Source: an uncultured Lachnobacterium sp.
GTDB taxonomy: Bacteria > Bacillota > Clostridia > Lachnospirales > Lachnospiraceae
Length of the DNA stretch: 64,000 nucleotides
Assembly (NCBI GenBank): GCA_964425905.1
Contig: CAYROM010000001.1
Span: forward strand, 16,671-80,670
Direction: 5' to 3'
Shown: one piece after another, positions 24,836-63,572 of the stretch
Layout: each line of letters begins with the position of its first letter
Numbering within the stretch: position 1 is the first letter of the stretch
Notes under the pieces: generated by a model
The model's input: only the letters and a program-made list of their open reading frames with translations
Database searches by the model: none
What the model was told of the DNA's origin: nothing
Made by a program: the position numbers and the translations under genes

Positions 24836-24936
24836 AAATATAAAAAAGATTAAGAACTATCTAAGAATTTGGACACGGTTTGTTCACAAGGCGTCTGTAT
24901 GATAGGAAAATTGGAAAAATAAGGAAAGGAGAGGCG

Positions 24937-25842
24937 ATGGAAAATATATCGGGAATGTTAAGCGGATTCTGGGAACAGACATTTGGCATACTGGGATTGT
25001 CTGATGTTGTCATAAATCCGGTGGATGTTATCGAGATTTTGATCATCTCTTTCCTCTTTTACCAAGTGCTTCTTTGGATTAAAAATACCAGAGCATGGAA
25101 TCTGTTCAAGGGAATTGTTGTGATCTTGCTCTTTGTACTGGTGGCGGCGGTCTGCCAGATGAGTACGATTCTCTGGCTGGCAGAAAATCTGCTGAATGTA
25201 GGTCTTATTGCGCTTGTAATCATTTTCCAGCCGGAATTGCGAAAGGCGCTGGAAAATCTGGGGAATAAAAATATCTTCGGAAGATTTCTGGCGATTGGAA
25301 AGGGTGAGAGCAGCAAATTTTCGGACAAGACGATCGATGAATTGATCAAGGCGTGTTATGCGATGGGAAAAGTTAAGACAGGAGCCCTGATTGTTATTGA
25401 GGATTCCATTAGTCTGGATGAATATATCCGCACGGGAATCGATGTGGACGCGATTCTTACCAGTCAGCTTCTGATTAACATATTTGAGAAAAATACGCCT
25501 CTTCATGACGGCGCTGTTGTTGTGCGCAGGGACAGGGTGGTATCTGCTACCTGTTATCTGCCGCTGTCGGACAGTATGAATTTGAGCAAGGATCTGGGTA
25601 CCCGGCATCGGGCGGCGGTGGGGATCAGCGAGGTGAGCGATTCCATGACGATCGTTGTATCCGAGGAGACCGGAAAGGTTTCTATTGCAATCAGGGGACG
25701 TATTTATCATGATGTCAGCGCAGAATTTCTCAAGGAAAAGCTGCAGTACATGCAGAACCGCAGTCATGAGCCGACGGCTCTGGAGCTTTTGAAAAGGAGG
25801 ATTAGGAATGGCAAAGAAGTTTCTAAAAACTCTGGTAAATAA
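24937..25842 (+). CDS. cdaA: Diadenylate cyclase CdaA (c-di-AMP synthase, DisA_N domain)
   Basis: Three N-terminal TM helices, then a DAC domain with DGAVVV, TRHRAA and SEETG motifs. Start ATG 24937 after GGAGAGG. Confidence 0.85.
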   Translation: MENISGMLSGFWEQTFGILGLSDVVINPVDVIEILIISFLFYQVLLWIKNTRAWNLFKGIVVILLFVLVAAVCQMSTILWLAENLLNVGLIALVIIFQPELRKALENLGNKNIFGRFLAIGKGESSKFSDKTIDELIKACYAMGKVKTGALIVIEDSISLDEYIRTGIDVDAILTSQLLINIFEKNTPLHDGAVVVRRDRVVSATCYLPLSDSMNLSKDLGTRHRAAVGISEVSDSMTIVVSEETGKVSIAIRGRIYHDVSAEFLKEKLQYMQNRSHEPTALELLKRRIRNGKEVSKNSGK

Positions 25843-27229
25843 TTTTGGCTTTAAAATTCTTGCGGTGATTTTTGCATGTGTGCTGTGGATCGTTGTCTAT
25901 AATATAAATGATCCGACGCAGACAAAGACCTATACCTCCCATGTTACGATCGAAAACGCGGACGCGATTTCGGAAATGAGCAAATATTATGAGATATTGG
26001 AGGGATCGAACAGCGTATCCTTTTCAGTTTCCGCAAAGAAAAGCGTTCTGGAGAAAATCGACGAAAGCGATTTTTCCGTGATGGCGGATATGAGCACGGT
26101 GGTCATTAGCGAGGACGGGACCACGGGGACCGTTAAAATCAATATTAGCTGCAGCAAGTATGACAATTCGCTGAAATATAACGGTAAAAGTAAGTATCTG
26201 CTGATCGGGCTTGAGGATTTGATGTCGAAGCAGTTTGTAATCACGGCAAACACCGACGGCACGGTGGCAGGCGGCTATGCGTTGGGAACCGTTTCCGTAT
26301 CCGGCACAAATGTGCTGAAGGTTTCCGGCCCGGCGTCGGTAGTCAGCCAAATCGCATCGGTAAGCGCAACGATCAATGTGGACGGTATATCCACAAGTAT
26401 ATCAAATGACGTTCTTCCCGTTCTGTACGACGCGGACGGAAACGTGATCGATACGACCAAACTGACCCTTAGCATAACAACGGCGACTATTAATGCAACG
26501 GTATTAGGAATGAAGGAGATTCCTCTGTATTTTAGCTCCACAGGAAAGCCGGGAGCCGGTTATTCTGTTGTAGGGGTAACCTCGGAGCAGGAGACGATCC
26601 AGGTAAAGGGGGCTTCAAGCGTCCTCAATACGCTGACGGCATTGGAGATCCCGGCGGAAGTTCTCAACGTGGAGGGAATGACGGATTCTCTTACAACGAC
26701 GATCGATATCAGCGAGTATCTGCCGGAGGGCTGCGAGCTTGTGGACAACAGGCAGTCGGTGGTGTCGGTGACGGTACAGATCGAACTCTACGAGTCAAGG
26801 ACCTATACGGTGCCGGTTTCCTATATTTCGATTGAAGGATTGGCAGATGACAGGTCCCTTGCATATAATAATTTGACGGTGGAGGTAGAGATCGGGGGCG
26901 TGGCGAGCGTTTTGGATGCGCTGGAGTCCTCGTCGCTGCGGTTTGTCCTGAATGCATCGAATCTTTCCGTGGGCACACATATTGTCAAATTGGAATTGTC
27001 GGATGAGAATGCGGATTATGATCTGATTGAGGGAGAGGCGGAAGTCGTTGTAACGAGAAAAACAATTTCGGGCAGCAATAGCGGCGCAGCTTCCGGTACG
27101 GGCAGCTCCGCAAATAATACCGGCAGCACGGAGAATGGTACAGGCGGAACGGAATCCGGCGGAACCGGCAGCGATGAAGACGGCAGCACGGATGATTCCG
27201 GGGATCAGGGCGATGATACAGGAGAATAA
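25808..27229 (+). CDS. cdaR: CdaA regulatory protein CdaR (YbbR-like repeats)
   Basis: N-terminal TM and repeated YbbR-like beta-rich domains. Overlaps the cdaA end. Acidic G/S/T/D-rich C-terminal tail. Confidence 0.75.
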   Translation: MAKKFLKTLVNNFGFKILAVIFACVLWIVVYNINDPTQTKTYTSHVTIENADAISEMSKYYEILEGSNSVSFSVSAKKSVLEKIDESDFSVMADMSTVVISEDGTTGTVKINISCSKYDNSLKYNGKSKYLLIGLEDLMSKQFVITANTDGTVAGGYALGTVSVSGTNVLKVSGPASVVSQIASVSATINVDGISTSISNDVLPVLYDADGNVIDTTKLTLSITTATINATVLGMKEIPLYFSSTGKPGAGYSVVGVTSEQETIQVKGASSVLNTLTALEIPAEVLNVEGMTDSLTTTIDISEYLPEGCELVDNRQSVVSVTVQIELYESRTYTVPVSYISIEGLADDRSLAYNNLTVEVEIGGVASVLDALESSSLRFVLNASNLSVGTHIVKLELSDENADYDLIEGEAEVVVTRKTISGSNSGAASGTGSSANNTGSTENGTGGTESGGTGSDEDGSTDDSGDQGDDTGE

Positions 27230-27261
27230 GGCAATTTGAATAATAAAGGAGAAGTAAGGAT

Positions 27262-28611
27262 ATGGGTAGATTGTTTGGGACGGACGGTGTCCGAGGTGTG
27301 GCCGGTACGGAGCTTTCTATTGAGCTTGCAACAAAGCTCGGTCAGGCAGGGGCGTATGTCCTGACGAAGGAAACGTCGCACCAGCCCACGATCATTGTGG
27401 GATGCGACACCAGAATATCGGGGGGAATGCTGGCGAACGCCCTCATGGCGGGAATCTGTTCCGTTGGGGCGAATGCGATTTTTGTCGGAGTAGTTCCGAC
27501 TCCGGCGATTGCGTATCTGACAAGAAGGCATAAGGTGGACGCCGGAGTTGTGATCTCCGCTTCCCACAATCCGATGGAGTTTAATGGAATTAAATTCTTT
27601 AACAGCGACGGTTACAAGCTCTCGGACGAGTTGGAGGACGAGATCGAGACCCTTATCGGGAGGGATATGGAAGGCATCGTATTTCCGATTGGATCGGGAA
27701 TCGGAAAAGTGGAGTACCGCTTTGACATCCGCGACGAGTATGTAGAATTTGAAAAAAAAACCGTACCGGTGGATCTGTCCGGCGTAAAGATCGTGGCAGA
27801 CTGTGCGGAGGGAGCCAGTTTTTACACATCGGTAAAGACCTTGAAGGATCTGGGGGCTGAACTGATTGCAATCCATACGAATCCGGATGGAACAAACATT
27901 AATGCAAACTGCGGTTCTACCCATATGGATGAGCTTAAGGCGCGGGTGGTATCGGAACATGCGGATATTGGGATCGCATTTGACGGGGATGCCGATCGTA
28001 TGCTCGCGGTGGACGAGAAGGGAAATATGGTGGATGGCGATGAGATCATGGCGATCTGCGGGAATTTTCTTCGTCAAAAGGGTAAGCTTGCAAAGGATAC
28101 AATTGTTGTCACGGTGATGACGAATCTTGGTTTTACTCTCATGGGAGAAAGAGAGGGCATCCATATCGAAAAAACTAAGGTCGGCGACCGGTATGTGCTG
28201 GAGAATATGCTGGAAAACGGATATAACATGGGGGGCGAACAGTCCGGGCATATCATTTTCCTTGATGACAATACAACCGGGGACGGTCTGCTCAGCGCGC
28301 TTCATCTGCTGGAGGTGATGGTGGAGACAAAGAGGCCGCTTTCCGAACTGAAGGAGATTATGGAAGTGCTGCCTCAGGCGTTGGTAAATGCAAAGGTTCC
28401 GAACCATAAGAAGGAAAGCTACATGGAATATGCGGAAATTGCGGAGGCGATCGCTGATCTGGAGAGACGGTTTGCGGGGGAAGGAAGAGTGCTGATACGT
28501 CCATCGGGGACAGAACCGCTTGTGCGTGTTATGATCGAGGGCAAAGAACAGAAGGTAATCGAGGAAGAAGCGATAAAATTGGCTGATCTGATCCAGAAGG
28601 TCATGCTGTAA
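27262..28611 (+). CDS. glmM: Phosphoglucosamine mutase
   Basis: LFGTDGVRG and the active-site SASHNP motif. 449 aa. Completes the conserved cdaA-cdaR-glmM operon. Confidence 0.9.
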   Translation: MGRLFGTDGVRGVAGTELSIELATKLGQAGAYVLTKETSHQPTIIVGCDTRISGGMLANALMAGICSVGANAIFVGVVPTPAIAYLTRRHKVDAGVVISASHNPMEFNGIKFFNSDGYKLSDELEDEIETLIGRDMEGIVFPIGSGIGKVEYRFDIRDEYVEFEKKTVPVDLSGVKIVADCAEGASFYTSVKTLKDLGAELIAIHTNPDGTNINANCGSTHMDELKARVVSEHADIGIAFDGDADRMLAVDEKGNMVDGDEIMAICGNFLRQKGKLAKDTIVVTVMTNLGFTLMGEREGIHIEKTKVGDRYVLENMLENGYNMGGEQSGHIIFLDDNTTGDGLLSALHLLEVMVETKRPLSELKEIMEVLPQALVNAKVPNHKKESYMEYAEIAEAIADLERRFAGEGRVLIRPSGTEPLVRVMIEGKEQKVIEEEAIKLADLIQKVML

Positions 28612-28624
28612 GGGGGAAAACAAT

Positions 28625-28888
28625 TTGGTAACGCAAAAGATCAAAATTACGAATCCGACGGGACTGCATCTGCGCCCGGCAGGAAATCTGTGCCGGGAGG
28701 CGATGAAGTACAAAAGCCGGATCACCTTTGATTATAGTGGAAACACAGCAAATGCGAAGAGCGTGCTTAGTGTGCTGGGCGCATGTATAAAATGCGGAGA
28801 TGAGATCACTTTGATCTGCGAAGGTGAAGATGAAGAAAAAGCAATAAAGGCATTGGTTGATTTTATAAGGGATGGACTTGGCGAATAG
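28625..28888 (+). CDS. HPr-family phosphocarrier protein
   Basis: TTG start after AAGGGGGAA. His15 sits in the PTGLHLRPAG context, and the Ser46-region AKSVLSVLG is conserved. 87 aa. Confidence 0.65.
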   Translation: MVTQKIKITNPTGLHLRPAGNLCREAMKYKSRITFDYSGNTANAKSVLSVLGACIKCGDEITLICEGEDEEKAIKALVDFIRDGLGE

Positions 28889-31347: not shown

Positions 31348-32544
31348 ATGCAACATGTTTTTATCGTGGGAAGTAAGGGAATTCCCGCTGCGTATGGCGG
31401 CTTTGAGACATTTGTGGAGAAGCTGACGGCAGGCCGCAAGAGTGAGCAGATATGCTATCATGTATCGCGCCTTTCGGATAAGAACGGTGAGTATAAATAT
31501 AACGGGGCGAAATGCTTTGACGTCAAAGTGCCGCATATTGGGGCTGCCAAGGCGGTGTTCTACGATGTTACGGCCCTTAAAAGGAGTATCCGTTATGTAA
31601 GACAGATACAAAAAGAACAGACATTAAAGAAAGAGGGCGCGTCATCACGCCCTGTTTTCTATGTATTGGCATGTCGGATCGGCCCCCTTGCCGGACACTT
31701 TAAGAGAAAAATCCATCGGCTGGGCGGTGTGCTGTATGTCAATCCGGACGGGCATGAGTGGAAACGCTCGAAATGGAATGCGCTGATCCGAAGATACTGG
31801 AAATTTTCGGAAAAGCGGATGGTAAAGCATGCGGATCTGCTGATCTGTGACAGCAAAAATATTCAAAGCTATATTCAAAGCCGGTATCGCAGATATCATC
31901 CGAAAACAACATATATTGCCTATGGCTCGGATACAGAAGCTTCATCGATCAAGGACGGGGATTTGAAGTTTACAAAATGGCTGGAGGAAAAGAAATTAAG
32001 CCCCCAGAACTATTATCTGGTGGTAGGAAGATTTGTTCCGGAGAATAATTTCAGAACTATATTGCGGGAATTCTTAAATTCTGATTCAACAAAAAAGCTT
32101 GCGATTGTCGCGACGCCGAACGCAGCCCTTTACAGAGAATTGGAAGAGGAACTGCATTTTTCGCAGGATTCCCGTATTTGCTTTGTCGGAACTGTGTATG
32201 ATCAGGAACTATTAAAAAAAATACGTGAGAACGCATATGGGTACTTTCATGGACATGAGGTTGGGGGAACGAACCCAAGCCTGCTGGAAGCACTTGGAAG
32301 TACAAAATTAAATCTTCTTTTAAGAGTTGGATTCAATGAAGAGGTGGCGGAGGAGGCTGCCCTCTATTGGACGAAGGAAGACGGAGACCTTGCCGCATGT
32401 ATCCATCAGGCGGATCATATGGATGAGGCCGTAAGGGACGATTATGGACAAAGGGCAAAAAAGCGCATTCTGGATGCATATAGCTGGGACTATATTGTAG
32501 ACCAGTACGAATCACTTTTCCAAAATGTGGATAGTATGGTATAA
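31348..32544 (+). CDS. DUF1972-plus-GT4 glycosyltransferase (WchF-like, putative rhamnosyl/hexosyltransferase)
   Basis: An N-terminal KGIPA.YGGFET-type DUF1972 and a C-terminal GT4 fold. Confidence 0.6.
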
Positions 32545-32666
32545 TGTCCGCGAAGGCAAAAGTGAGCATACGGATATATCAGCAGGCGATGCTTGCATCA
32601 GCCGGATGATAATATCGAATGCGAACGCGCCCGCGAGCCCGGAAAACCGGAGGTTTTTCGGGACTT

Positions 32667-32696
32667 TTGCCGAAGCGTCGAAAGTTATGGTATAAT
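32667..32696 (+). promoter_or_regulatory. Possible internal promoter with extended -10
   Basis: TTGCCG at 32667-32672, 18-nt spacer, TGgTATAAT ending at 32696. Lies in the 200-bp gap upstream of the GtrB-like gene. Confidence 0.4.
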
Positions 32697-32745
32697 GTCG
32701 TCAGACATTATACCGCGCGAATGCGTTAGAAGAGAAGGAGATCCG

Positions 32746-33717
32746 ATGGATATCATCACGATTGTAGTTCCGTGTTATAACGAGGAAAGCAATGTTTTGC
32801 TTTTTTATGAAAATATTCAGAAAACTGCACAGTTGATGCCGCAGGCGGACTTACGGCTTCTTTTTGTGGATGACGGCTCAAAGGATGGAACCCTTGCGGC
32901 TTTTCGGAAACTCAGAGAGCGTGATCCGATGGTGGAATATATTTCCTTTTCAAGAAATTTCGGAAAGGAAGCGGCAATTTATGCAGGTTTAAGCAATGCA
33001 AAGGGCGACTATGTGGCCATTATGGACGCGGATCTGCAGGATCCGCCATCCCTGCTGCCGGATATGTACCGGGCGGTGGCCGAGGAAGGCTTTGATTCCG
33101 CCGCAACCCGACGGGTCAGCAGAAAGGGAGAGCCGCCGATCCGTTCCTTTTTTGCGAGAAGATTCTATCATATTATGAATAAAATCAGCGATGTGGAGCT
33201 GATGGACGGCGCGCGGGACTTTCGGCTGATGAACCGGAAATATGTGAACGCCCTTTTGAGTCTTCAGGAATATAACCGCTTTTCCAAAGGCCTTTACGGG
33301 TGGGTTGGATTTAAGACGAAATGGTTTGAATATGAGAATGTGGAGCGGGTGGCAGGAGAGACAAAATGGTCTTTTTGGAAGCTGCTTAAGTATTCTCTGG
33401 ATGGGATCGTAGCCTTTTCGGAAACGCCGCTCTATATAGCGTCCGTGCTGGGGACATTGATGTGCGGGATTTCTTTCGCGGCAATCATATTTATCATTAT
33501 CCGGCAATTGGTGTATCACAATTCCGTGTACGGCTGGTCCTCCATGGTATGTATTGTTATCCTGTTGGGCGGCATACAGCTGTTGGCAATCGGTATATTG
33601 GGGCTTTACTTTTCAAAGACTTATCTTGAGGTGAAGAGAAGACCTATTTATATTTCGAATGAAGCTGCGCTGGAATGTGCAGATAAAGCATCGGATGAAT
33701 TAAAAAAGTGTGAATAA
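32746..33717 (+). CDS. Polyprenyl-phosphate glycosyltransferase (GtrB/CsbB/ArnC-like GT2 with C-terminal TM helices)
   Basis: Start ATG 32746 after GGAGA. GT2 core ITIVVPCYNEE...FVDDGSKD and two C-terminal TM helices typical of Dpm1/GtrB. Confidence 0.7.
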   Translation: MDIITIVVPCYNEESNVLLFYENIQKTAQLMPQADLRLLFVDDGSKDGTLAAFRKLRERDPMVEYISFSRNFGKEAAIYAGLSNAKGDYVAIMDADLQDPPSLLPDMYRAVAEEGFDSAATRRVSRKGEPPIRSFFARRFYHIMNKISDVELMDGARDFRLMNRKYVNALLSLQEYNRFSKGLYGWVGFKTKWFEYENVERVAGETKWSFWKLLKYSLDGIVAFSETPLYIASVLGTLMCGISFAAIIFIIIRQLVYHNSVYGWSSMVCIVILLGGIQLLAIGILGLYFSKTYLEVKRRPIYISNEAALECADKASDELKKCE

Positions 33718-34966: not shown

Positions 34967-35965
34967 GTGTTTATGCCGTTTTTGAGCATTTTTTATGAAT
35001 TTGGGATTCTGCCGTTTTTGCTTGGGATGTTGTGGTGCAGAAAAAAACAGGTGATGGGATTCCACAGTATCTACGTTCATGGATATATGACAATGTTTTC
35101 GATATTTTATCTTCTCGCTGTGCCATATATCGTTATAGGGAAAAGCCTGTCCGAACTTGTCCGCGCGTGGACGATAGTATTAGTTGCAGTTCCTGTTGTG
35201 TGGCTGGTTCAAATTTGCGCACATCGGCAGACATATATAGGGCAATTGCATTATCTGATTTGCAATATAAAAATTGCAATGGAGAAACTGCGCGGGATGA
35301 TGTGCCTGCTGGCCGTGCTGATCGTTTTTTCTACTGTGTGGGTGATTCCGTCCGTTGAGGATGATGTGCCGGAAATTGTGGGTATATCTATATATACGGA
35401 CACAATGTATGTATATCAGCCATACACGCAGATTCTGTATGCAGATAATCTGAAAAAAGCGCTATCGCCGATTGAAATGCTTTATGCCGCATCAGCAAAG
35501 ATTGCAAATATGGATTCAACGGTTATGATTCACATGTGTGTACCGATTTTTTTGATACCATTGTATGGGGCTGTTGGTTGGATGGTTTCAGAGTATTTCT
35601 TTAAGGATAGACTTCGAAATAGGAGTCTGTTTGAGATGCTTTGGATGATTACGGGTACTGCTGCGGTATGCTCAGTAAGGGCGCTTTCTATTGGGATATT
35701 GATGAACTCGTGGAATGGACTTACTTTGATTTCGGAATGCATACTGCCGATTGCCTTGATCGAAGGATTCGCGCTTTATGACGGGATCGTAAATCGAAAA
35801 AAAATTGATCATCAGAAGTTTTTATTTATAGTTATGATAATGATCGCGGCACAGCTTACGGTGGAAAAAGGAATGTTCTTAACATTGGCTATTATGGCGG
35901 TATGTCTGGGAATGGCATTGATTCGAAAAGGGTATAAGAATGTCGGCGTTATTCGAAAGCATTAG
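34967..35965 (+). CDS. Hypothetical polytopic membrane protein (first half of paralogous pair A)
   Basis: ~9 TM segments. Weak but consistent similarity to the 50081 protein. Confidence 0.45.
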   Translation: MFMPFLSIFYEFGILPFLLGMLWCRKKQVMGFHSIYVHGYMTMFSIFYLLAVPYIVIGKSLSELVRAWTIVLVAVPVVWLVQICAHRQTYIGQLHYLICNIKIAMEKLRGMMCLLAVLIVFSTVWVIPSVEDDVPEIVGISIYTDTMYVYQPYTQILYADNLKKALSPIEMLYAASAKIANMDSTVMIHMCVPIFLIPLYGAVGWMVSEYFFKDRLRNRSLFEMLWMITGTAAVCSVRALSIGILMNSWNGLTLISECILPIALIEGFALYDGIVNRKKIDHQKFLFIVMIMIAAQLTVEKGMFLTLAIMAVCLGMALIRKGYKNVGVIRKH

Positions 35966-36647
35966 GCTAGCCTGGAATAGTTACAGCATGACGACAATAA
36001 ATATGATTCTTTATTGGCTGGCTATGGTGTGGCTGTTCCTATTTGAAAAGAAGAAAAAAGAGAATATATTGTTTTGGTATGCTGCTTTTATTCCGGTTAT
36101 GCTGCTTTTAATGCAAATATCATGCTTTTATCTTTTACCGGGACGTTCTCTCGGGAAAATGTTCCTGCTGTTGCCCGTGGGGATTCTTATGAGTTACACC
36201 GCTGTAAGAATTGCGGAAAGCGGCAGGGGAACAAAAAAGACATGGATAATTGTGCTCCTCTATGCTATAATGATTCAAGCCGGAATTACAATGAGATATA
36301 ACAGTTCTGTATTGCAGGGAGGGCTGAACTGCTATAAGATTTCTCCAAGCGTGGAATGGATGGCATATTACATCGGAGAAGATGAAAAGCTGAATGAGCC
36401 CTATGTGCTTGCTCCGAGTCAGATTGCCAGTCAGATTCAGGAATATGATGCGAGCATCAGGGTGGCATATGGGGAAGGGTATTCATATACGGGGAAAGAT
36501 CTTGACGAACTTTTGACGGAAATGGATTCCGTTGGATGCAACTGCCTGATCGTTAGATATGATGAGGAAAAAGAGGAATACATTAAGCATAAGGGTTACC
36601 GTTTGATTGTGATCCATGATAATTACGCAATATATGCGAGGAAATAG
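35940..36647 (+). CDS. Hypothetical membrane protein with soluble C-terminal domain (second half of pair A)
   Basis: N-terminal TMs and a C-terminal domain that aligns with the 51149 product. Overlaps 34967 by 26 nt in a different frame. Confidence 0.45.
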   Translation: MSALFESIRLAWNSYSMTTINMILYWLAMVWLFLFEKKKKENILFWYAAFIPVMLLLMQISCFYLLPGRSLGKMFLLLPVGILMSYTAVRIAESGRGTKKTWIIVLLYAIMIQAGITMRYNSSVLQGGLNCYKISPSVEWMAYYIGEDEKLNEPYVLAPSQIASQIQEYDASIRVAYGEGYSYTGKDLDELLTEMDSVGCNCLIVRYDEEKEEYIKHKGYRLIVIHDNYAIYARK

Positions 36648-38538: not shown

Positions 38539-39180
38539 ATGAAAATGGAATTTTCAACATCACAAAAAGTATATAGTGTGGTTAAGCGCTGTATGGATTT
38601 TTTGTTTGCACTGATTGGAGTGATTTTGTTAAGCTGGCTGCTGCTGATTTTATGTGTTGCCATTAAAATTGACAGCAGAGGGCCGGTTTTGTTTAAACAG
38701 AAGAGGGTTGGAATACATAAGACACATTTTTTGATATTAAAATTTCGCACCATGAAAATTGATACACCGAAGGATATGCCGACGCATATGCTGGAGAATC
38801 CGGATCAGTATATTACACGGGTGGGAAAGTTCCTTCGCAAGAGCAGTCTGGATGAATTGCCGCAGATTTTTAATATTCTTATGGGAAAGATGAGCATCGT
38901 GGGACCTCGGCCGGCATTGTGGAATCAATTTGATTTAATCGAGGAGCGGGATAAATACGGAGCAAATGACGTTACTCCCGGAATGACCGGGTGGGCTCAG
39001 GTAAACGGCCGCGATGAGTTGGAAATTCCGGTAAAGGCAAGGCTGGACGGCTATTATGTGCAGCATTATGGGTTTGGCATGGATGTAAAGTGCTTCTTTA
39101 AGACAATTGCCGCGGTTCTATCCCGTGATGGAATAGTGGAAGGCGGTACAGGCAATCGGAAGAATGAGGAACAGAAATGA
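38539..39180 (+). CDS. Small monotopic phosphoglycosyltransferase (PglC/WcaJ-C-terminal type sugar transferase)
   Basis: Single N-terminal TM, then [37 protein letters not shown]. Start ATG 38539 after GGAGA. Confidence 0.8.
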
Positions 39181-40088
39181 AGCGAATACTGATAACAGGA
39201 GCCAACAGTTATGTTGGCACCTCATTTGAAAAGTGGATGCAGCAGTATGCAGAGTATGAAGTTGATACAATTGATATGATTGATGGGGAGTGGCGTAATA
39301 AAAGTTTTTCAGGACATTATGCCATTTTTCACGTTGCGGGCTTGGCACATGCCGACATTACAAATGTCTCGGATGAGGTGAAGGAAAAATATTATGCCAT
39401 CAATTGTGATATGGCAATCGAGACTGCAAAAAAGGCAAAGGCGGACGGCGTGCAGCAGTTTATTTTTATGAGCAGCATGTCGGTTTACGGGGAGAGCGCC
39501 CCGGTGGGAAAGCAGCGGATTATTACCGCAGATACGCCAGCCTCTCCGGCGAATTTTTACGGGGACAGTAAGGTTCAGGCGGAAAAGGGTCTGCTGGAAT
39601 TAAATGATGTGTCGTTTAAGGTTGTCATTCTAAGGCCGCCGATGGTGTATGGAAAGGGGAGCAAAGGAAACTTTCCCACGCTGGAAAAGTTTGCAAAAAC
39701 ACTTCCGGTCTTTCCGTCAATAAAAAACGAGCGTTCTATGATCTTTGTCAATAATCTCTGCGAATTTGTGCATTTAGCGATTGAGCGCGAGATTAGCGGA
39801 ATTTTTTATCCACAGAATGCAGAATATGTAGTGACTGCTAAAATGGTAGAAAAAATAGCTGCTGAGCACCACAAACACATTTGGGTAACGCCTGTTTTTA
39901 ACTGGGCGATCTATTTGATCTCAAGAACACCGGGACAATACGGAAAATTGTGCAACAAAGCATTTGGGAGCTTGGTTTATGAAAAGGATTTGTCAGAGGG
40001 ACCGATCAAGGTTTCCGAGTACCAGACGGTAAGCTTTGAGGAATCTATAAGACTTACCAGAGCAGATGAAGAGGAAAGAGTCAAATGA
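39177..40088 (+). CDS. NAD-dependent epimerase/dehydratase family protein
   Basis: [14 protein letters not shown] Rossmann start. 303 aa SDR-extended. Confidence 0.65.
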   Translation: MKRILITGANSYVGTSFEKWMQQYAEYEVDTIDMIDGEWRNKSFSGHYAIFHVAGLAHADITNVSDEVKEKYYAINCDMAIETAKKAKADGVQQFIFMSSMSVYGESAPVGKQRIITADTPASPANFYGDSKVQAEKGLLELNDVSFKVVILRPPMVYGKGSKGNFPTLEKFAKTLPVFPSIKNERSMIFVNNLCEFVHLAIEREISGIFYPQNAEYVVTAKMVEKIAAEHHKHIWVTPVFNWAIYLISRTPGQYGKLCNKAFGSLVYEKDLSEGPIKVSEYQTVSFEESIRLTRADEEERVK

Positions 40089-40834
40089 GCGACAGGCGGG
40101 ATATTCTGGTCAGTATCGTTACGGTATGCTACAATAGTGAGGCGACCATTCGGGACACGCTGGAATCGGTGTTGAACCAGACATATACGAACATTGAATA
40201 TATCATTGTAGATGGGGGATCATCTGACGGCACGATGAGAATCGTCGAGGAGTATCGAAGGCGGTTTGAGCAGAGAGGCATGCGTTACGTTGTTTCGAGT
40301 GAGCCGGATCAGGGAATCTACGATGCCATGAATAAGGGAACAGGGAAAGCCACAGGAAAGCTGGTTGGTATTTTAAACAGCGATGACTGGTATGAACCGA
40401 TTGCGGTTGAGAGGGTTGCGGACACTTTTGAAAAGACGGGCTTTGACATGTTTTATGCGGATCTTCGACTGGTGAAAGAAAACGGTGAGATGATCAAGCA
40501 TTCCAGATACCGCAAATTTGCCACGAGCAGGGATTGGAATCATCCGACCACCTTTTTGAGAAGAGAGATATACGACCGGTTTCAGTATGCGTGTGAGACG
40601 ATACATGATGATTGGGATCTGGTTTTGAAGGTAAGAAACGCCGGATATAAAATTGTTGTCCTGAATGAGGTTCTCGCCAATTTCCGCGTAGGAGGGGAGA
40701 GCAATAACGGCGGATTAAAAAAGGCGATCAAGCGCTGCAAACAGCGATATGCAATCTATCGAAAAAACAACATGAGCCGATGGTATCTGGTTGAGTGTAT
40801 TGCAATCGAGGCAGCGAAGATGATACTTCGATAA
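40085..40834 (+). CDS. Family 2 glycosyltransferase
   Basis: VSIVTVCYNSEATI...YIIVDGGSSDGT. Confidence 0.75.
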   Translation: MSDRRDILVSIVTVCYNSEATIRDTLESVLNQTYTNIEYIIVDGGSSDGTMRIVEEYRRRFEQRGMRYVVSSEPDQGIYDAMNKGTGKATGKLVGILNSDDWYEPIAVERVADTFEKTGFDMFYADLRLVKENGEMIKHSRYRKFATSRDWNHPTTFLRREIYDRFQYACETIHDDWDLVLKVRNAGYKIVVLNEVLANFRVGGESNNGGLKKAIKRCKQRYAIYRKNNMSRWYLVECIAIEAAKMILR

Positions 40835-40857
40835 TGATTTTAATTAAAGGAACCGCT

Positions 40858-42087
40858 ATGAAAATTGTTGCAAATATCAAAAATCCCCTTTCAACACTGA
40901 CGTTTGAAAGGAAGACAATTTCATATAGTAATGTTCTGGATACGGTACTGGAACTTTTCCTCTATGTAAACTGCTTCTTTCCGTTCCTGAAATTTATATA
41001 TTTTGGATCGGATACGCAGCCCTATGCGATGCTGTTCGGGTTTTTGATCACCGTCATATATATATGGAGAGAGCGTACCATGCCGAAGGAAGCAGTACTG
41101 CTTCTGCTCTGTGGTATATTTATGGGAGCATTTGCGCTCACCGGATTAAATCAGATCAGCACATATATGGTATTCCGCAGTTATTCTGCATATGTAACTC
41201 TTATGTTTGTTCCAATTGGAACATTCCTTATAATGAAAAAAAGGGGTGGTCTAAATGAATTGTTTGCCAAGTGCTGTATTTGGTTTTGGTTTTTGGTTGG
41301 TTTTATACAAAAATGGGTTGATAGCGAATTTGGTTATGTGTTGACGGTGAGACATACGACTGGATTAACTCGTGGTGTAGTAAGTATGGCACCCGAGCCG
41401 TCTACGTACGGATATATGTGTATGTTTATGCTGCTAATTGCAATGGGATTTCAAAAAAAACGTTTGCTGTATGCGGCATTGTTGCTTACTCAGATATGTG
41501 TATTTGCAAATTCGTCAATAACACTTGTATACCTTGCGGTTTATGCTGGAACATTTGTATTTGGTGAAATAGTGCAAGCCAAAAAGTTTACTCTTTTGAA
41601 AATTGTTTTATTGGTCGGCTGTGTAGTTGCGGGGATTTACATTGTTCGAAATTACGTTCCACAGTCTAATCGCATCCGAATTCTTGTGGATTATGCATTT
41701 GATGATCCATCAAAATTCATTAATGATGGAAGTATTCAGATCCGAATCAATGAAATAGCTGAGACGTTTGGAGGATTTTGGTCCAATAATGGAATACCGC
41801 ATGGATTGAGCGCTTATAAGTATATGAGCGGTATAGGTTTGGTATTGCTCGAAGCTGGATGGTTTGGTGTTTTTATATTGGTTGTGGTTGCAGTAATTGT
41901 TTGGGGCGCATATCCAAGGAAAAATCGCCTGATGTATACGCTGGGGCTTATGCTTATGATGGTATCCGCAATTCCGTTTTCGGCGCCGCTATTTTGCTTT
42001 TATCTTGGAATGTGTTTGTACAATGGATGGGTAATGAAAAATAAAAAGTTGGAGGCGCAGCGAATTGAAGGTTCTTTGGATATGTAA
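40858..42087 (+). CDS. Wzy-like oligosaccharide repeat-unit polymerase / O-antigen-ligase-family membrane protein
   Basis: 10-12 TM segments with a large loop and no catalytic soluble domain. AT-rich. Confidence 0.5.
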   Translation: MKIVANIKNPLSTLTFERKTISYSNVLDTVLELFLYVNCFFPFLKFIYFGSDTQPYAMLFGFLITVIYIWRERTMPKEAVLLLLCGIFMGAFALTGLNQISTYMVFRSYSAYVTLMFVPIGTFLIMKKRGGLNELFAKCCIWFWFLVGFIQKWVDSEFGYVLTVRHTTGLTRGVVSMAPEPSTYGYMCMFMLLIAMGFQKKRLLYAALLLTQICVFANSSITLVYLAVYAGTFVFGEIVQAKKFTLLKIVLLVGCVVAGIYIVRNYVPQSNRIRILVDYAFDDPSKFINDGSIQIRINEIAETFGGFWSNNGIPHGLSAYKYMSGIGLVLLEAGWFGVFILVVVAVIVWGAYPRKNRLMYTLGLMLMMVSAIPFSAPLFCFYLGMCLYNGWVMKNKKLEAQRIEGSLDM

Positions 42088-43330: not shown

Positions 43331-43333
43331 AAA

Positions 43334-44287
43334 ATGGAAATAAATAGTTTGGCCCCGGTGGTATTGTTTGTGTATAACCGTCCGGAGCATACAAAAAAAA
43401 CAATAGAGGCATTAAAACGCAATATCGGTGCAAAGCAGACAGAGCTTTATATATTTTGCGATCAGGCAAAAGACGAATCTGTGCGACAAAGAGTAGATCT
43501 TACCCGGCAGTATGTCCATACGATTACAGGTTTTAAGGAAATCCATATTGTGGAAAGAGACGAAAATTGGGGATTGGCGAGATCCATCATCTCCGGTACA
43601 ACGGAGGTTGTAAATACGCACGGCAGGATTATCGTATTGGAGGATGATCTAATTACCAGCCCGTTTTTTCTGCAGTATATGAATACCGCATTGGAAAAAT
43701 ATCAGGATGCAAAACAGGTTTTTTCGGTGACCGGATATTCCCATTTTCCAAACGGAAACGAAGCGCTTCCGCAAAGTTACTTTCTGAAGGTGTTTTCGTC
43801 GTGGAGCTGGGCGACATGGGCAGACCGCTGGGCGCTGTTTGATGAAAACGCGCTTGGGTGGGAGAAGACGAAGACGGATCCCGAATTGGCGAAGCAGTTT
43901 GATTATGAGGGGTGTTTTTACAATTGCCAGATGCTGAAAGCGCAGATGGAAGATCATACGATCAATTCATGGGCAATCCGGGCATATTGGACACAATTTA
44001 AGTATGACATGGTGACATTGTTTCCAAATCAGAGGCTGGTGGAGAACGAGGGCTTTGACGGAACGGGAGTTCATTGCAATGATAAGGCGGACTATCTGGA
44101 GGGAAAGCTTGCCGGCGGGCAGATAACGGAATTCCCGGAGAAAATAGAAGAAAAGGCGTTGAGCAGACAGGAGCTGATTCGCTTTATCGCCGCAAAAAAA
44201 CGCGCCTATAAGAGAACACGGATCAGGTATTATGCAGGGCATCCGGTACAGGCGTTGAAAAAAATAAAGGAAAAGATGGGCAGATAA
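43334..44287 (+). CDS. Putative GT-A fold glycosyltransferase (family not assigned)
   Basis: N-terminal VVLFVYNRPEHT and a VLEDD acidic motif. Confidence 0.45.
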   Translation: MEINSLAPVVLFVYNRPEHTKKTIEALKRNIGAKQTELYIFCDQAKDESVRQRVDLTRQYVHTITGFKEIHIVERDENWGLARSIISGTTEVVNTHGRIIVLEDDLITSPFFLQYMNTALEKYQDAKQVFSVTGYSHFPNGNEALPQSYFLKVFSSWSWATWADRWALFDENALGWEKTKTDPELAKQFDYEGCFYNCQMLKAQMEDHTINSWAIRAYWTQFKYDMVTLFPNQRLVENEGFDGTGVHCNDKADYLEGKLAGGQITEFPEKIEEKALSRQELIRFIAAKKRAYKRTRIRYYAGHPVQALKKIKEKMGR

Positions 44288-48683: not shown

Positions 48684-50078
48684 ATGAAGAGACAAGACGG
48701 TTATTGTGTAGAAACCAGAGAAATCAACATAAAAAGAATGCTGTGGTGGATATTGCGAAAATGGCGGGTCGGAGCTGCTTTTGCGATAGTCTGTGCGGTG
48801 ATATTTGGCGCTTGGCAATATAAGAGAGAGGAGCAGATTCACGAGGAAAATTATCAGGAGGCGATTGCTGCGCAAAATCAGGCTGCAGAGAGCGTAGAAT
48901 CTCTGACAGATCAACTTTCTGATGCAGAGCTTGGCGGAGTCAATATGGCCGTTTATTATCAAACGAAACTGATTAGTGCTAGCAATTATCTTGGCAATTC
49001 TGTATTAATGCAACTAAATCCTTATGCAGAAAATGTAATGAATATTTATGCGGAATGTGTGTCGGAAGAGGAAGCTATTAATGTCATGAATTATCTGTCA
49101 AGCGAGGACTTTCTTAATGAACTCGTGAGTGTTGTTGGATGGTATAGAGAAAAAAGCTATCTGAAAGAATTGATTGAGCCGGAAATGGCGGGGAATAATG
49201 TAAAGATATCAGTTATTGCAGATAGCGTAAGCAATGCAGAGTTGTATGCGAACAATATCGTTGCGTTGCTCAATAGCTATCATTCGGAAGAGGTGATATA
49301 TGTATACTTAGAGGCCGAGACGGTGGTGGATATGTCCGCGGTTGAAACTTTTAATAGTGTCTATGACAGTTATATTACTAATAATTCCTTTTTTTCAAAT
49401 TATTATAATACTCTTAATGCAAAACAGCTTCAGCTGTATAATTTGTTGATATCGGGCCAATCGTCTGTTGAAGAAGATAGCATAATAATTACGCTTGAAG
49501 AGACAAAGATTAACTTTAAAATGATTGTTATGGGCTTTTTAGCGGGAATTATTGCAGCCGCAGTAATCCTGGGTGTTGTATATACCTTTAGCGCAAGGAT
49601 TCATGGGGAAGAGGAAGCGAAATATTTATTTGGTGAACCTGTCATCGGCAATGTGAATGCAGGCGGGCTTGAAAGAAAAAGGCTCTTTGGTTTTGTGGAC
49701 AGGGCAGTCTATAAGCTGGGAAACCGTACCGCAAAACGTATTGACTATGACGGACAGCTTCAAATGTGCATTGCTAATATTTCGCTTATGTGTCAGGCAA
49801 AGGACGTTAAGGAAATATATTTATCAGGAAGTGAAATCGGAAGGCTTCCGGAGAAGCTTTTGACAGACATAAAGGAAGGGCTTTCGGCAGAGAACATCGG
49901 TGTTTTTTCGGGTGGAAGTATTGTATATGATGCGGATTCTCTAAAGGAATCGGCGGAGAAGAACAATCTTATTTTTATTGAGATCAGCGAGAAATCAGCA
50001 TGTAAAGAAATTGCTAAAGAGTTGAATCTGTGTCTGCAGAATCAGCTTAATTGTCTGGGGATTATTATGGTGGAATAG
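48684..50078 (+). CDS. Wzz/CapA-like polysaccharide co-polymerase (chain-length determinant) protein
   Basis: TM1 near the N-terminus (VGAAFAIVCAVIFGAW), a ~270-aa extracytoplasmic domain, TM2 (MIVMGFLAGIIAAAVILGVVY), and a ~150-aa cytoplasmic tail with no Walker motifs. Confidence 0.5.
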   Translation: MKRQDGYCVETREINIKRMLWWILRKWRVGAAFAIVCAVIFGAWQYKREEQIHEENYQEAIAAQNQAAESVESLTDQLSDAELGGVNMAVYYQTKLISASNYLGNSVLMQLNPYAENVMNIYAECVSEEEAINVMNYLSSEDFLNELVSVVGWYREKSYLKELIEPEMAGNNVKISVIADSVSNAELYANNIVALLNSYHSEEVIYVYLEAETVVDMSAVETFNSVYDSYITNNSFFSNYYNTLNAKQLQLYNLLISGQSSVEEDSIIITLEETKINFKMIVMGFLAGIIAAAVILGVVYTFSARIHGEEEAKYLFGEPVIGNVNAGGLERKRLFGFVDRAVYKLGNRTAKRIDYDGQLQMCIANISLMCQAKDVKEIYLSGSEIGRLPEKLLTDIKEGLSAENIGVFSGGSIVYDADSLKESAEKNNLIFIEISEKSACKEIAKELNLCLQNQLNCLGIIMVE

Positions 50079-50080: not shown

Positions 50081-51148
50081 ATGGGGATTTTAATGCTTCT
50101 GCTTCTGCTTGGGGTAATACCGATCCCTGTGGGAGCATTGTTTACACGACCGATGATCAAAAAACGAAAAATGAGCCTGACATTTGTCTATATCATGGGC
50201 ATTATGGTATTGGTGGCGCTGAGTGAAATACTCTCAGTACCCATGACTTTGATCAGAGGATCATTTTCATCCTTCGTATGGGTATATAACGGCGTTACGC
50301 TTGCGTTCATTATTCTGGCTATCGTTTTTTGTCGAAACTATATTGCGGACCTTGTGAAAACTGCGGCGGAAAGAATCCGCCATGCAGATAGGGCATGGAT
50401 ACTGGTATTATTGGCAATCTATGTGCCGGTTATCCTATTGGCATTTGTGACGCCGTATATTTACGGAGATGACAGAACCTACCTTTCTATGGTGAATGAT
50501 ATTGTGCAGTCAAACACATTATATCAGATTGATGCGGATACCGGGGAAGAGGTTGTGTTTGTATTGGCAAAATATGCGCTGTCCTCCTATTGGACATGGA
50601 TTGCATATCTTGTAAAAATGTCCGGGATCCATTCCTTGATTCTCTGCAAAACGGTGCTCATGTTTATATTAGTTCCCATGAGTTACGCGATTCAGGGACT
50701 GCTGGCGGGGCATTGGTTCCGAAACGATGAGCGGAAAATGCGCATATATATGCTCCTTGTCGTATTGGCAAGCATTTTTGGCGGTTTTTCGGCGTATACG
50801 GTTACCTATCGTCTATATACATGGGTGTGGCAGAGCAAAGCCTTTCTTGCGATCATCGTGCTGCCGTTTCTGCTATATTATTGCTGTATGGTATATGAGA
50901 AAGACACCGCGGGATGGGAATATGTACTGTTAATGCTGTTGATCATTGCAGCCTGCTCTACCACACTAACCGGAACTGGTCTTGCGGTTGCGATGGCTTG
51001 TCTATTATCCGCAATCTATGCTTTTATCCAAAGGAAAATAGGGATGGTTATTAAAACCGTATGTTCCTGTCTGCCGGCATTTGTATTGATGGTCATTTAT
51101 ATGCGTTACTATTATTTTTTGGCATTCTTCGGGTTACTGGGGGAATAG
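50081..51148 (+). CDS. Hypothetical polytopic membrane protein (first half of paralogous pair B)
   Basis: ~10 TM segments, similar to the 34967 product (for example VPMSYAIQGLLAGHWFRNDER versus VPIFLIPLYGAVGWMVSEYFFKDR). Ends at TAG directly abutting the next ATG. Confidence 0.45.
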   Translation: MGILMLLLLLGVIPIPVGALFTRPMIKKRKMSLTFVYIMGIMVLVALSEILSVPMTLIRGSFSSFVWVYNGVTLAFIILAIVFCRNYIADLVKTAAERIRHADRAWILVLLAIYVPVILLAFVTPYIYGDDRTYLSMVNDIVQSNTLYQIDADTGEEVVFVLAKYALSSYWTWIAYLVKMSGIHSLILCKTVLMFILVPMSYAIQGLLAGHWFRNDERKMRIYMLLVVLASIFGGFSAYTVTYRLYTWVWQSKAFLAIIVLPFLLYYCCMVYEKDTAGWEYVLLMLLIIAACSTTLTGTGLAVAMACLLSAIYAFIQRKIGMVIKTVCSCLPAFVLMVIYMRYYYFLAFFGLLGE

Positions 51149-51874
51149 ATGAGTATAGTAAATTTTTTAAACCAGCTTTTTTGGACGGATAGCGCTTATA
51201 TGATACTCATGGCAATATCTTTGATCTGGATTCTTACAAGAAAGAATGAGGATGTAAGGGCAAAATGCATGGCTGTCTACTCGGCGCTTGCCTTTTTGTT
51301 TGTCATTTGCAATCCGATCATTGCGCCGTTGGGACTGTATTTTTTTGGAGAGGATAAGTATGCGTATCTGCGCATATTTTATTTAGTCCCGCTGATGTCG
51401 ATCATTGCTTATAGCGGAACTTCTTTCTATACGGAATATGTAAAAAGAACGGATCGGACAGCTAAGAAGGCGGTATATGCGGCTGTTATTGTGATTACGC
51501 TCATATTATGCGGATCGCTCTACGATTCAACTATGTACAGAAAGGCAGAAAATATATATAAGATCGATCAGGACGCCTTGGAAATCAGCGAGATCATCAA
51601 TGAGGACAGCGGAAATGAAAGAGTTTATGTCCTGCTGCCGGGGGCGGACGACATCGTTTATGGTGTCAGGCAGTATACGGAAAGGATTATCGTAGCCGGC
51701 AATTCGGACGAGGTGACAGACCGAGAGTCGCTGGCCGGCGCGCAGGAATCCAAAGCGTTTGAATATCTGGTGATAGATAAGGAAAAAGAGGAACTGTTGG
51801 CGGCTGATATGGTAGATTTTTACAGGCTTGATGAAACGGAACATTATGTCATATACAAAAAGGTGGACGGCTGA
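51149..51874 (+). CDS. Hypothetical membrane protein with soluble C-terminal domain (second half of pair B)
   Basis: C-terminal domain aligns with the 35940 product (YVL.P....Y....I.VAG/YG....LVI/LIV.D.EKEE...HYVIY/NYAIY). Confidence 0.45.
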   Translation: MSIVNFLNQLFWTDSAYMILMAISLIWILTRKNEDVRAKCMAVYSALAFLFVICNPIIAPLGLYFFGEDKYAYLRIFYLVPLMSIIAYSGTSFYTEYVKRTDRTAKKAVYAAVIVITLILCGSLYDSTMYRKAENIYKIDQDALEISEIINEDSGNERVYVLLPGADDIVYGVRQYTERIIVAGNSDEVTDRESLAGAQESKAFEYLVIDKEKEELLAADMVDFYRLDETEHYVIYKKVDG

Positions 51875-62048: not shown

Positions 62049-62111
62049 TTGGAATGAATTCTTCTAAGTGTAAAAATGATATGTCGAATCAAGCTTTTTG
62101 GAGAAAAAATT

Positions 62112-63572
62112 ATGTTAAAAAAATTAATGGAAAAAGGTGTGGATTATATTAAGGAATCTCGGAAAATTAACTTATTATTGACTCGTTTTTTTCCATTTGT
62201 GTTTGCCTTTTTACTATGCTTTATATTTTTATTAAGAATTGATAATATGATAGATTTATCAATGGATGCTAGCGATATATGGATGACTGTAAAATCCTAT
62301 TATAAAGAGGATACATATGCTTCATATGTATTGTACAAAGGTATTTTTTCGGTCTATCCATATGTATGGCTGTATCAATTCACACTTTTATTAGGGGTGG
62401 GAGAGTTTTTCTTTATCAAAGTATTCCATTCGCTTCTCTTTGCTTATATTGTGGGAGTTGGTTTTCCGTACATTTTTGAATTTATTTTGGGAAGGAAAAT
62501 TCCTACATGGAAAAAGATAATATATATAGTAATTATATTTTGGCTGCAAATAAATAATTTGGCATATATTCAAATTGTAATAGATCTGCCATATTTGTTT
62601 TGGTTTACGTTGATGATACACTCATATTTAAAGTTGAAATCCCAATCATCAAAACACAAAATTTTGATATATATGCTGCTGGGAGCGGCCATAGGATGTT
62701 GCACTTGTTTTACGGGGCAATACAAATTCTCCGCAATCTTAATTTTGATATTAGTTGGATATGATTTGATAAAACAATTAAGGAAATCTGACCTTTACCG
62801 CTGGATAGGCAGTATTTTTATTATCGTCGTTATGGTAGGCGGTGTGGTGATGGCAGAACATGCTTTCCAGACCAGAGTGGTAGATGGATTTAGGCAGGAG
62901 GGGGCGTGGATACCAACGGCAGATGACTGGGTACAAAATTTCTTAAGACAGGAAAAGCCAAAATCGGCCGCGGTATACCTAAAGGGCGGTCAAATAATAG
63001 ACTATCAAATTACCGCAATCCATGCAAATGAGGAACCGGAGTATGAGGGTTTATTGGGTACGATGGAAATTTTTGCAGAATATATAAGAGTTGGATTAAA
63101 GCACCCGGCAGAATTGGTCATCAGTTATGCGAATAAGTTTTTTTTGGCTTTTTTGTGTGGCAATACATGTAATTTCTTTTATATTTTTGCGCACTATTCG
63201 TTGCTATTTATTGGGATATGGACAATCAAGTGCAGAAAATGTTTAAATAAACAAAATTTAGGAATTTTTATATCTATTTTAGTCTCTATTTTGGTTCCAT
63301 GTGTTACACATATGGAGTCGAGGTATGCGATGGCATTACAAAACTTTGTTTATGGATTTGCAATATTGGATAGCAGATTGATTTCGGAGATTAAAATCGG
63401 AATATTGCGTTTAAAGAGAAAAAACCAGAAAGATAAGCTGCTGGTGAATCAATGGACCGGATGGACAACATTTTTGTATCTGTGTTTTATAATTATGTGT
63501 ATGATGTTGGTATCATCATTTATGGTAAGTTGCGGTTTGGAGAATGGAACATGGTACTTGTTTGAATATTAA
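62112..63572 (+). CDS. Hypothetical polytopic membrane protein (candidate flippase, polymerase or GT-C; family unclear)
   Basis: ~12 TM segments. Start ATG 62112 after GGAGAAAAAATT. AT-rich. Confidence 0.4.
   Translation: MLKKLMEKGVDYIKESRKINLLLTRFFPFVFAFLLCFIFLLRIDNMIDLSMDASDIWMTVKSYYKEDTYASYVLYKGIFSVYPYVWLYQFTLLLGVGEFFFIKVFHSLLFAYIVGVGFPYIFEFILGRKIPTWKKIIYIVIIFWLQINNLAYIQIVIDLPYLFWFTLMIHSYLKLKSQSSKHKILIYMLLGAAIGCCTCFTGQYKFSAILILILVGYDLIKQLRKSDLYRWIGSIFIIVVMVGGVVMAEHAFQTRVVDGFRQEGAWIPTADDWVQNFLRQEKPKSAAVYLKGGQIIDYQITAIHANEEPEYEGLLGTMEIFAEYIRVGLKHPAELVISYANKFFLAFLCGNTCNFFYIFAHYSLLFIGIWTIKCRKCLNKQNLGIFISILVSILVPCVTHMESRYAMALQNFVYGFAILDSRLISEIKIGILRLKRKNQKDKLLVNQWTGWTTFLYLCFIIMCMMLVSSFMVSCGLENGTWYLFEY

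Follow-up and report, generated by a model that had tools for sequence, protein, structure and literature searches.

The window analysed here, a stretch of 64,000 nucleotides (nt) from an uncultured Lachnobacterium sp. (contig CAYROM010000001.1 of assembly GCA_964425905.1), contains two pairs of adjacent membrane-protein genes, designated here as pair A (34967-36647) and pair B (50081-51874). They raise the question of whether each pair is one enzyme divided over two genes, one gene that is broken or recoded, or an enzyme with an independent companion. The reading favored here, with a probability of roughly 0.78, is that each pair encodes a two-subunit membrane glycosyltransferase of the GT-C fold, produced from two translationally coupled cistrons.

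All four open reading frames (ORFs) are on the plus strand. A1 (34967..35965, 332 amino acids (aa), GTG start) has about nine transmembrane (TM) helices by hydropathy, and A2 (35940..36647, 235 aa) has four N-terminal TM helices and then a soluble alpha/beta domain at the C-terminus. B1 (50081..51148, 355 aa) has about ten TM helices, and B2 (51149..51874, 241 aa) has four, followed by an acidic alpha/beta domain predicted to be extracytoplasmic (residues ~141-238, nt ~51569..51862). An alternative TTG start of B1 at 50051 would give 365 aa; the ATG at 50081 is the one used by database homologues. A1 and B1 are the proposed catalytic core subunits of enzymes A and B, and A2 and B2 are their partner subunits. 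A1 and A2 overlap by 26 nt (35940..35965) in different frames, with a Shine-Dalgarno-like AAAGGG 5' of the A2 ATG. At the B1/B2 junction (51146..51151; ggg gaa tag atg agt), the TAG of B1 abuts the ATG of B2 in the same frame, and GGGGGA lies 5-6 nt upstream.

In BLAST alignments, A1 and B1 show 22% identity (E = 2e-9), and A2 and B2 show 24% (E = 1e-7); at the level of sequence, the paralogy of the two pairs is weak but real. A preliminary description, made from the sequence alone, had reported the sizes and positions of the four ORFs, the 26-nt overlap, the in-frame TAG-ATG, and the alignment of the first proteins with each other and of the second proteins with each other. All of these were confirmed, and the shared motifs it quoted are present in the BLAST alignment. 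It had also placed the split of both pairs at the same point, which holds only approximately. In a three-way alignment with a naturally fused orthologue, the hydrophobic helix at the end of B1 (its last ~30 residues) corresponds to the linker of the fused protein, and A1 and A2 have nothing equivalent; therefore, pair A is one helix short of pair B.

The first proteins could be assigned to a Pfam family. DUF6077 (PF19554; 354 profile positions, gathering threshold 27 bits) is matched by A1 with an E-value of 7.8e-36 and 124 bits (profile 5-327), and by B1 with 1.3e-70 and 238 bits (profile 4-352). By these profile matches, A1 and B1 are members of DUF6077, which Pfam names a "family of unknown function". 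A2 and B2 matched nothing in Pfam or NCBIfam, and NCBIfam had no family for A1 or B1 either. A single hidden Markov model (HMM) of the partner family, consisting of 122 sequences (A2 and B2 of the window and 120 database representatives), matches both A2 and B2 at ~1e-62, and invariant P, Y, N, K, I, P, G, and Y columns are seen in its alignment. Against 1.84 billion representative proteins, the partner-family profile matched 1767 clusters at E ≤ 1e-3, of which 1066 reached E ≤ 1e-10. Among the best 150 clusters, 125 are not longer than 300 aa, and most of these have 215-285 aa. In one other, P0067 (587 aa), a DUF6077 domain precedes the partner sequence in the same chain, and about 20 have the partner sequence at the N-terminus and an extra C-terminal domain. 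The HMMs of Wzy and O-antigen ligase families (Wzy_C, O-antigen_lig, and EpsG) did not match A1 or B1 at E ≤ 1, and Wzy_C showed only scattered sub-threshold matches to the partner representatives (6 of 116, best E 0.014). Searches of the available literature library found no description of DUF6077 or of a split GT-C enzyme.

The extra C-terminal domain on some partners is of the metallo-beta-lactamase fold or is a calcineurin-like metallophosphoesterase, and it comes after a complete partner module. Such partners are encoded at L020:1936-3879 and L024:4995-7001, where the gene is still directly 3' of a DUF6077 gene, and are also represented by P0090, P0101, P0120, P0149, P0159, and P0169. Presumably, the domain is an extracytoplasmic hydrolase or phosphodiesterase carried on the second subunit of a GT-C enzyme.

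The division into two genes is the common state among relatives. All 42 homologues of B1 are 285-384 aa long, most of them 340-370 aa, and the three below 300 aa are on contigs of ~1 kb. The homologues of A2 and B2 (n = 15) are 231-249 aa long except for one N-terminally short cluster of 201 aa, and those of A2 are all 231-236 aa. To assess gene order, 52 related loci were scanned with the HMMs of the DUF6077 and partner families, the DUF6077 genes were clustered at 90%, and those with sufficient downstream sequence were counted, which left 32 distinct genes; adjacency was assessed from the DUF6077 side only. A partner gene is present directly downstream on the same strand in 25 of the 32. Homologues are thus mostly split, with fusion in one lineage. 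Across 34 distinct pairs, the identity between DUF6077 proteins and the identity between their partners are correlated with a Pearson r of 0.89.

The metagenomic contig L024 carries three tandem pairs of DUF6077 and partner genes in 385-7001 (385-1407/1391-2095, 2104-3159/3177-3899, and 3896-5002/4995-7001). The family multiplies within loci there, as it does in the window.

The fused protein P0067 joins both families in one chain. Its residues 1-323 match A1 with 37% identity (E = 3e-69), and residues 356-587 match A2 with 42% identity (E = 9e-59). Its 90% cluster (P0067/P0206) comprises eight sequences, drawn from ENA, Logan, and NCBI, and one of them was found on 45 contigs. The fusion gene occupies the exact slot of pair A in a syntenic locus: on its 5' side are RmlA, RmlC, Wzm, Wzt, and a 683-aa methyltransferase-containing protein, and on its 3' side are a CapD-like dehydratase, a small Bac_transf protein, an epimerase, GT2, and GT4. 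The neighborhood of the split orthologue in L004 is the same as that of the fusion gene, and the window matches its downstream half. The positive-inside rule places the C-terminus of A1 (…IRKGYKNVGVIRKH) in the cytoplasm and predicts the N-terminus of A2 outside. Because A1 ends inside and A2 begins outside, a fusion needs an extra helix, and the linker of the fused protein (…RVPGIFGALFCGVMLLCW…), which aligns with the last hydrophobic helix of B1 and is absent from A1 and A2, supplies it. This extra linker helix argues that P0067 is a genuine, adapted fusion.

The predicted structures point to the GT-C fold. GT-C enzymes have 8-13 TM helices and a DxD or modified DxD motif in an extracellular loop, and AftD, ArnT, STT3, AglB (3WAJ), and PglB are their usual top structural homologues (PMC8035078). 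The predicted model of B1 has about ten helices with a predicted template modelling score (pTM) of 0.90, and hydropathy gives about nine TM helices for A1 and four each for A2 and B2. The predicted helix numbers fit GT-C topology, for which about 8-13 or more are characteristic. In the structure comparison, the DUF6077 core was matched to AglB 3waj (score 11.3, 222 residues aligned), AftA (10.7, 233), GPI mannosyltransferase I (10.1, 198), ALG3 (9.6, 196), ALG6 (9.3, 202), Pmt4 (9.0, 213), ALG12 (8.3, 193), and ArnT (7.8, 215), with STT3B, DPY19, PimE, and AftD among further matches. The membrane core of the model thus resembles solved GT-C enzymes. The partner model also found its best structural matches among GT-C enzymes, including their membrane parts (ALG12, AftA, AglB, and STT3B), and its predicted extracytoplasmic domain lies C-terminal to the last TM helices, as in many, though not all, GT-C enzymes. 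In a Foldseek search with B2, the match of the highest probability was another C-terminal domain of AglB (3vgp), with a probability of 0.92 and a non-significant E-value of 0.14. The fold assignment of B2 is of moderate confidence. The GT-C-type resemblance proposed in the preliminary description is supported by these model comparisons for both halves.

The predicted placement of the conserved residues would fit this fold. In an alignment of 32 DUF6077 sequences, an Asp-Asp pair and a Lys (K164 in B1, K163 in A1) are invariant. The pair is D132-D133 in A1 (VEDDVP, preceded by E131; codons 35360..35365, plus strand) and D130-D131 in B1 (YGDDRT; codons 50468..50473, plus strand). The pair and the Lys fall within an acidic loop of ~48 residues, which the positive-inside rule predicts to be on the outer face, and the K/R-rich loops alternate as the topology predicts. 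The soluble domain of the partner is acidic (27 D/E versus 13 K/R) and is also predicted to be extracytoplasmic.

GT-C glycosyltransferases are generally described as single polypeptides, and the C-terminal module of these single-chain enzymes helps acceptor binding. In the proposed two-subunit enzyme, subunit 1 (A1 or B1) would be the polytopic membrane core, with the Asp-Asp pair and Lys in the outward loop as the presumed active site. Subunit 2 (A2 or B2) would add four TM helices and a small extracytoplasmic alpha/beta domain, which may correspond to the C-terminal module of the single-chain enzymes. Together, as a putative heterodimer, the subunits would take a sugar or glycan from a donor linked to undecaprenyl-(pyro)phosphate and add it, outside the membrane, to a cell-wall polysaccharide. 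The true two-subunit family suggested in the preliminary description is supported by the conserved split, purifying selection, co-divergence, and the syntenic natural fusion.

Several observations weigh against the two-subunit GT-C interpretation. All of the structural evidence comes from predicted models of separate subunits, and the model of B2 has low confidence in its membrane part (predicted local distance difference test (pLDDT) 45-70). Foldseek found no significant match for B2 in the PDB (best E-value 0.027), and the profiles of the DUF6077 and partner families gave no meaningful match against PDB sequences. The topology estimate places the Asp-Asp pair after the fourth helix, not the first, which is a difference from single-chain GT-C enzymes. 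Among the 116 partner representatives compared with Pfam, only sub-threshold matches were obtained (DUF6057 for 15, YfhO for 11, and DUF6056 for 2), and since they are mixed with unrelated membrane families they may reflect composition. For 7 of the 32 distinct DUF6077 genes, no partner is found within 4 kb, so the DUF6077 core may be active by itself or together with a partner encoded far away. Among the window genes scanned, no flippase of the Wzx or GtrA type was recognized.

The partnerless DUF6077 proteins constitute a clade of 364-375 aa (L029, L030, L032, L035, L036, L048, and L049), from metagenome-assembled genomes (MAGs) of rumen Clostridiales and Saccharofermentans and from metagenome contigs. 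In six of the seven, the gene directly after DUF6077 is Wzz-like, and the one after that is CapD-like or of the Bac_transf type. The gene directly after DUF6077 in L035 encodes a 365-aa protein.

These seven lineages also bear on the most serious alternative, in which DUF6077 is a complete small GT-C enzyme and the partner is a co-transcribed but independent protein, either an accessory for acceptor binding, scaffolding, or regulation, or a separate enzyme. The partners with metallo-beta-lactamase or metallophosphoesterase domains would fit such a modular platform, the fold evidence for B2 is only moderate, and a two-protein arrangement of this kind was proposed in a speculation on small GT-C enzymes, which might depend on another protein to bind the acceptor (PMC8035078). 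Against it, the structural matches of the partner extend beyond soluble domains into the membrane parts of GT-C enzymes, the fusion occurred in a syntenic position, and the DUF6077 and partner genes co-diverge tightly. This alternative is considered unlikely, while keeping some weight.

It is much less probable that DUF6077 is a transporter, a flippase, or another polytopic protein whose resemblance to GT-C enzymes is that of a generic helical bundle. Helical-repeat or designed proteins, which are not membrane proteins, are indeed interleaved among the matches of the DUF6077 core, but they align over 75-145 residues, compared with 190-233 for the GT-C matches. The membrane proteins among the top matches are all GT-C enzymes, from at least 12 families, and the invariant acidic pair lies in a loop predicted to face outward, as would be expected of a GT-C enzyme.

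The junctions bear on the possibility of programmed recoding, by which readthrough of the TAG in pair B and a −1 or +1 frameshift in pair A would yield a fused polypeptide, alone or beside the separate products. Only a TAG separates the in-frame B1 and B2, the genes of pair A overlap by 26 nt, and the fused orthologue indicates that a single chain is viable. The orthologous junctions, however, include overlaps (26, 17, 14, 8, or 1 nt) as well as gaps (0 to ~87 nt); each of the three relative frames occurs, and TAA, TAG, and TGA are all used as stops. Therefore, no recoding signal is conserved. The partner start is usually preceded by a GGAGG, AAGGAG, or GGGGG element. The 26-nt overlap recurs in L004/L005 and L053, and the TAG-ATG junction of pair B is identical in the relative L052, while other B-type orthologues have overlaps or gaps in other frames. 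Since the partners have start codons and Shine-Dalgarno-like sites of their own in these varied contexts, the TAG-ATG junction that keeps pair B in frame is one variant among many, of a kind usual for translationally coupled cistrons. In pair A, moreover, recoding would join a cytoplasmic C-terminus to an outward N-terminus without the linker helix, and the topology of the partner would be inverted. Conserved readthrough or frameshifting was rejected on these varied frames, stops, and spacings (−26 to ~+87 nt), and recoding in any form is judged very improbable. Of the two mechanisms mentioned in the preliminary description, stop-codon readthrough is thus disfavored, and the likely one is coupled translation of the kind that is ordinary for adjacent cistrons.

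The nearest relative, GCA_965296865.1, has both pairs with the same junctions at 63-79% amino-acid identity. The same junctions are shown by the independent assembly L001 and by L052/L053, a relative of 70-79% identity. In comparison with GCA_965296865.1, the ratio of nonsynonymous to synonymous substitutions (dN/dS) is 0.20 for A1, 0.16 for A2, 0.08 for B1, and 0.09 for B2, values to be read with synonymous sites saturated (dS > 1) for all four genes; by this sequence comparison, all four genes are under purifying selection. The explanation that the pairs are pseudogenes, in which a gene of ~600 aa was broken by a nonsense mutation (B) or a frameshift (A), can appeal to the single-ORF fused orthologue and to the in-frame stop directly 5' of the ATG in pair B, but it is excluded by the split being the majority state across relatives of 27-79% identity, by junctions that vary with lineage and yet are both intact in a close relative, by the separate start codon and Shine-Dalgarno-like site of each partner, and by the dN/dS of 0.08-0.20. 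The preliminary description had also argued against random pseudogenization, from the similar split of both pairs.

If the pairs are two-subunit GT-C glycosyltransferases, their gene neighborhoods suggest different roles. Directly 5' of B1 is a gene for a 464-aa bitopic membrane protein (48684..50078, plus strand; TM ~23-41 and ~275-307). Its family (~440-520 aa) adjoins DUF6077 in ~30 fetched loci (for example, L029:2372-3808 and L018:4788-6215), on the 5' side in Lachnospiraceae loci and on the 3' side in rumen Clostridia loci. Pfam Wzz is matched by 9 of 19 family members (best E 5.9e-7); the window copy had no Pfam match, and the family profile found nothing among PDB sequences. By these sequence features, the family looks like a divergent chain-length determinant or co-polymerase, and the protein is likely to be a third component of module B. 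A cytoplasmic tail of ~160 aa is also predicted in the family.

In Lactococcus, the GT-C-fold protein WpsH is the proposed repeat-unit polymerase and WpsI the chain-length regulator, and WpsJ, also of the GT-C fold, is the proposed ligase of the polymer onto rhamnan made by an ABC transporter; WpsH and WpsJ are described as single proteins, and no partner subunit is mentioned, unlike in the pairs here (PMC10821137). Because the conserved Wzz-like gene adjoins, pair B with this neighbor would most likely be a repeat-unit polymerase with its chain-length regulator, by analogy to WpsH and WpsI, a likeness of gene neighborhood alone. Pair A lies at the boundary of two glycan modules, as WpsJ does, and would most likely be a ligase or side-chain transferase comparable to WpsJ or GacL. 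This assignment is suggested because its orthologues lie at the junction of the ABC-transporter module and a second module, and because a lipid-sugar synthase is encoded nearby in the window. The ABC-transporter module is beside the pair A orthologues in L004 and L050, and is distant from pair A in the window.

The candidate lipid-sugar synthase is a PgfS/ArnC-like GT2 with two C-terminal TM helices (32593..33717, plus strand; Pfam Glycos_transf_2), two genes 5' of A1. Its product is matched by NCBIfam PgfS at 2e-99, below the cutoff of that family, and by the ArnC-type PRK10714 at 8.4e-40, and it is a candidate supplier of a lipid-linked sugar donor. The next gene encodes a UDP-glucose 6-dehydrogenase (33748), which hints at a lipid-linked hexuronic acid or a similar donor.

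The pairs share several features with known systems. As in single-chain GT-C enzymes (AglB/PglB/STT3, AftA/AftD, ArnT, the ALG/PIG mannosyltransferases, and YfhO, GtlB, GacL, and CsdB/D/F of Firmicutes), the predicted core fold is the same, an acidic motif is in a loop predicted to face outward, an AglB-like C-terminal domain is predicted to be extracytoplasmic, and the surrounding surface-glycan locus also encodes a polyprenyl-phosphate glycosyltransferase. They differ in that the proposed DUF6077 enzyme is two polypeptides, cut after helix 9 or 10 as the majority state, and in that the pairs have no detectable sequence similarity to any characterized GT-C family. What sets them apart from described GT-C enzymes is that the two-polypeptide form is normal and the fused form occasional. 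Similar to Wzy/Wzz and Wzy_C-type systems, the polysaccharide locus encodes a Wzz-like protein beside the proposed polytopic membrane enzyme of pair B; among the window genes scanned, neither a Wzy nor a WaaL homologue was recognized. The PgfS/ArnC-like GT2 near pair A resembles the arrangement of GtrA/B/C, CsbB-GtcA-YfhO, GacI/J/K/L, and PgfS/M1/M2. In contrast to these multi-component systems, no GtrA- or Wzx-type flippase was recognized in the genes scanned here, and the PgfS-like gene is not adjacent in the orthologous loci L004 and L050.

A broader proposal is offered tentatively, as something rather doubtful at present. DUF6077 and its partner may represent a large, undescribed class of heterodimeric GT-C enzymes of gut and rumen Clostridia (more than 1000 partner clusters), whose core and acceptor-recognition module co-evolve as separate polypeptides. 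Together with a Wzz-like protein dedicated to them, they might serve as cell-wall polysaccharide polymerases or ligases that replace the classical Wzy and WaaL types, and the second subunit might be a detachable platform which also carries extracytoplasmic metallo-hydrolase domains. Such a heterodimeric class, if real, would realize the two-protein GT-C arrangement speculated on in PMC8035078. The two-subunit interpretation, if true, would explain what Pfam DUF6077 and the partner family of more than 1000 clusters do, and would provide a natural system for locating the part of a GT-C enzyme that determines acceptor specificity. It would also offer candidate genes for the polymerase and ligase of cell-wall or capsular polysaccharide in the Roseburia/Agathobacter group, and would warn annotators against calling adjacent or overlapping DUF6077 and partner ORFs frameshifted pseudogenes.

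As the preliminary description had stated, both pairs are beside polysaccharide modules. From ~28.9 kb onward, the whole remainder of the window is a single large polysaccharide locus with GT2 and GT4 genes, two Bac_transf initiators, and a Wzm/Wzt transporter. It begins with GT2 (28907), a WbaP-like initiator (29874), and a Cps2T-type beta-1,4-rhamnosyltransferase (31348..32544; above the NCBIfam cutoff, E 3e-175), which are followed by the PgfS/ArnC-like gene, the dehydrogenase gene, and pair A. Next are a CapD-like dehydratase (36650), a small Bac_transf protein (38482), and an epimerase, glycosyltransferases, and a 430-aa membrane protein (39177-45471). After a cassette of MptE-like, cytidylyltransferase, and HMGL-like genes (45444-48673) come the Wzz-like gene and pair B, then GT4, a 340-aa protein without a Pfam family, GT2, and GT4 (51828-55933), Wzm/Wzt (55930-57468), and two GT2, an acetyltransferase, and an aminotransferase (57474-61629).

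Two polytopic membrane proteins of the locus, of 430 aa (40795..42087) and 498 aa (62076..63572), have no Pfam or NCBIfam family and are candidates for further polymerase, ligase, or flippase functions. The 430-aa protein is syntenic on the 3' side of pair A in L004, and probably in L050.

The cassette on the 5' side of module B is conserved and consists of an MptE-like protein, a CTP_transf_3 cytidylyltransferase, and a 531-aa protein. The last has an N-terminal HMGL-like aldolase/synthase domain and a C-terminal part of ~260 aa without a family, and it is 70-81% identical across Roseburia/Agathobacter MAGs. The composition of the cassette suggests that it makes an unusual keto-acid sugar and activates it with cytidine monophosphate.

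Just 5' of the polysaccharide locus (24880..28611), CdaA (DAC domain), a YbbR-domain protein, and a phosphoglucosamine-mutase-like protein are encoded in an operon, which is the ordinary arrangement of the cyclic di-AMP synthase operon. The mutase gene is overlapped by a probably spurious minus-strand ORF of 506 aa (27205..28725).

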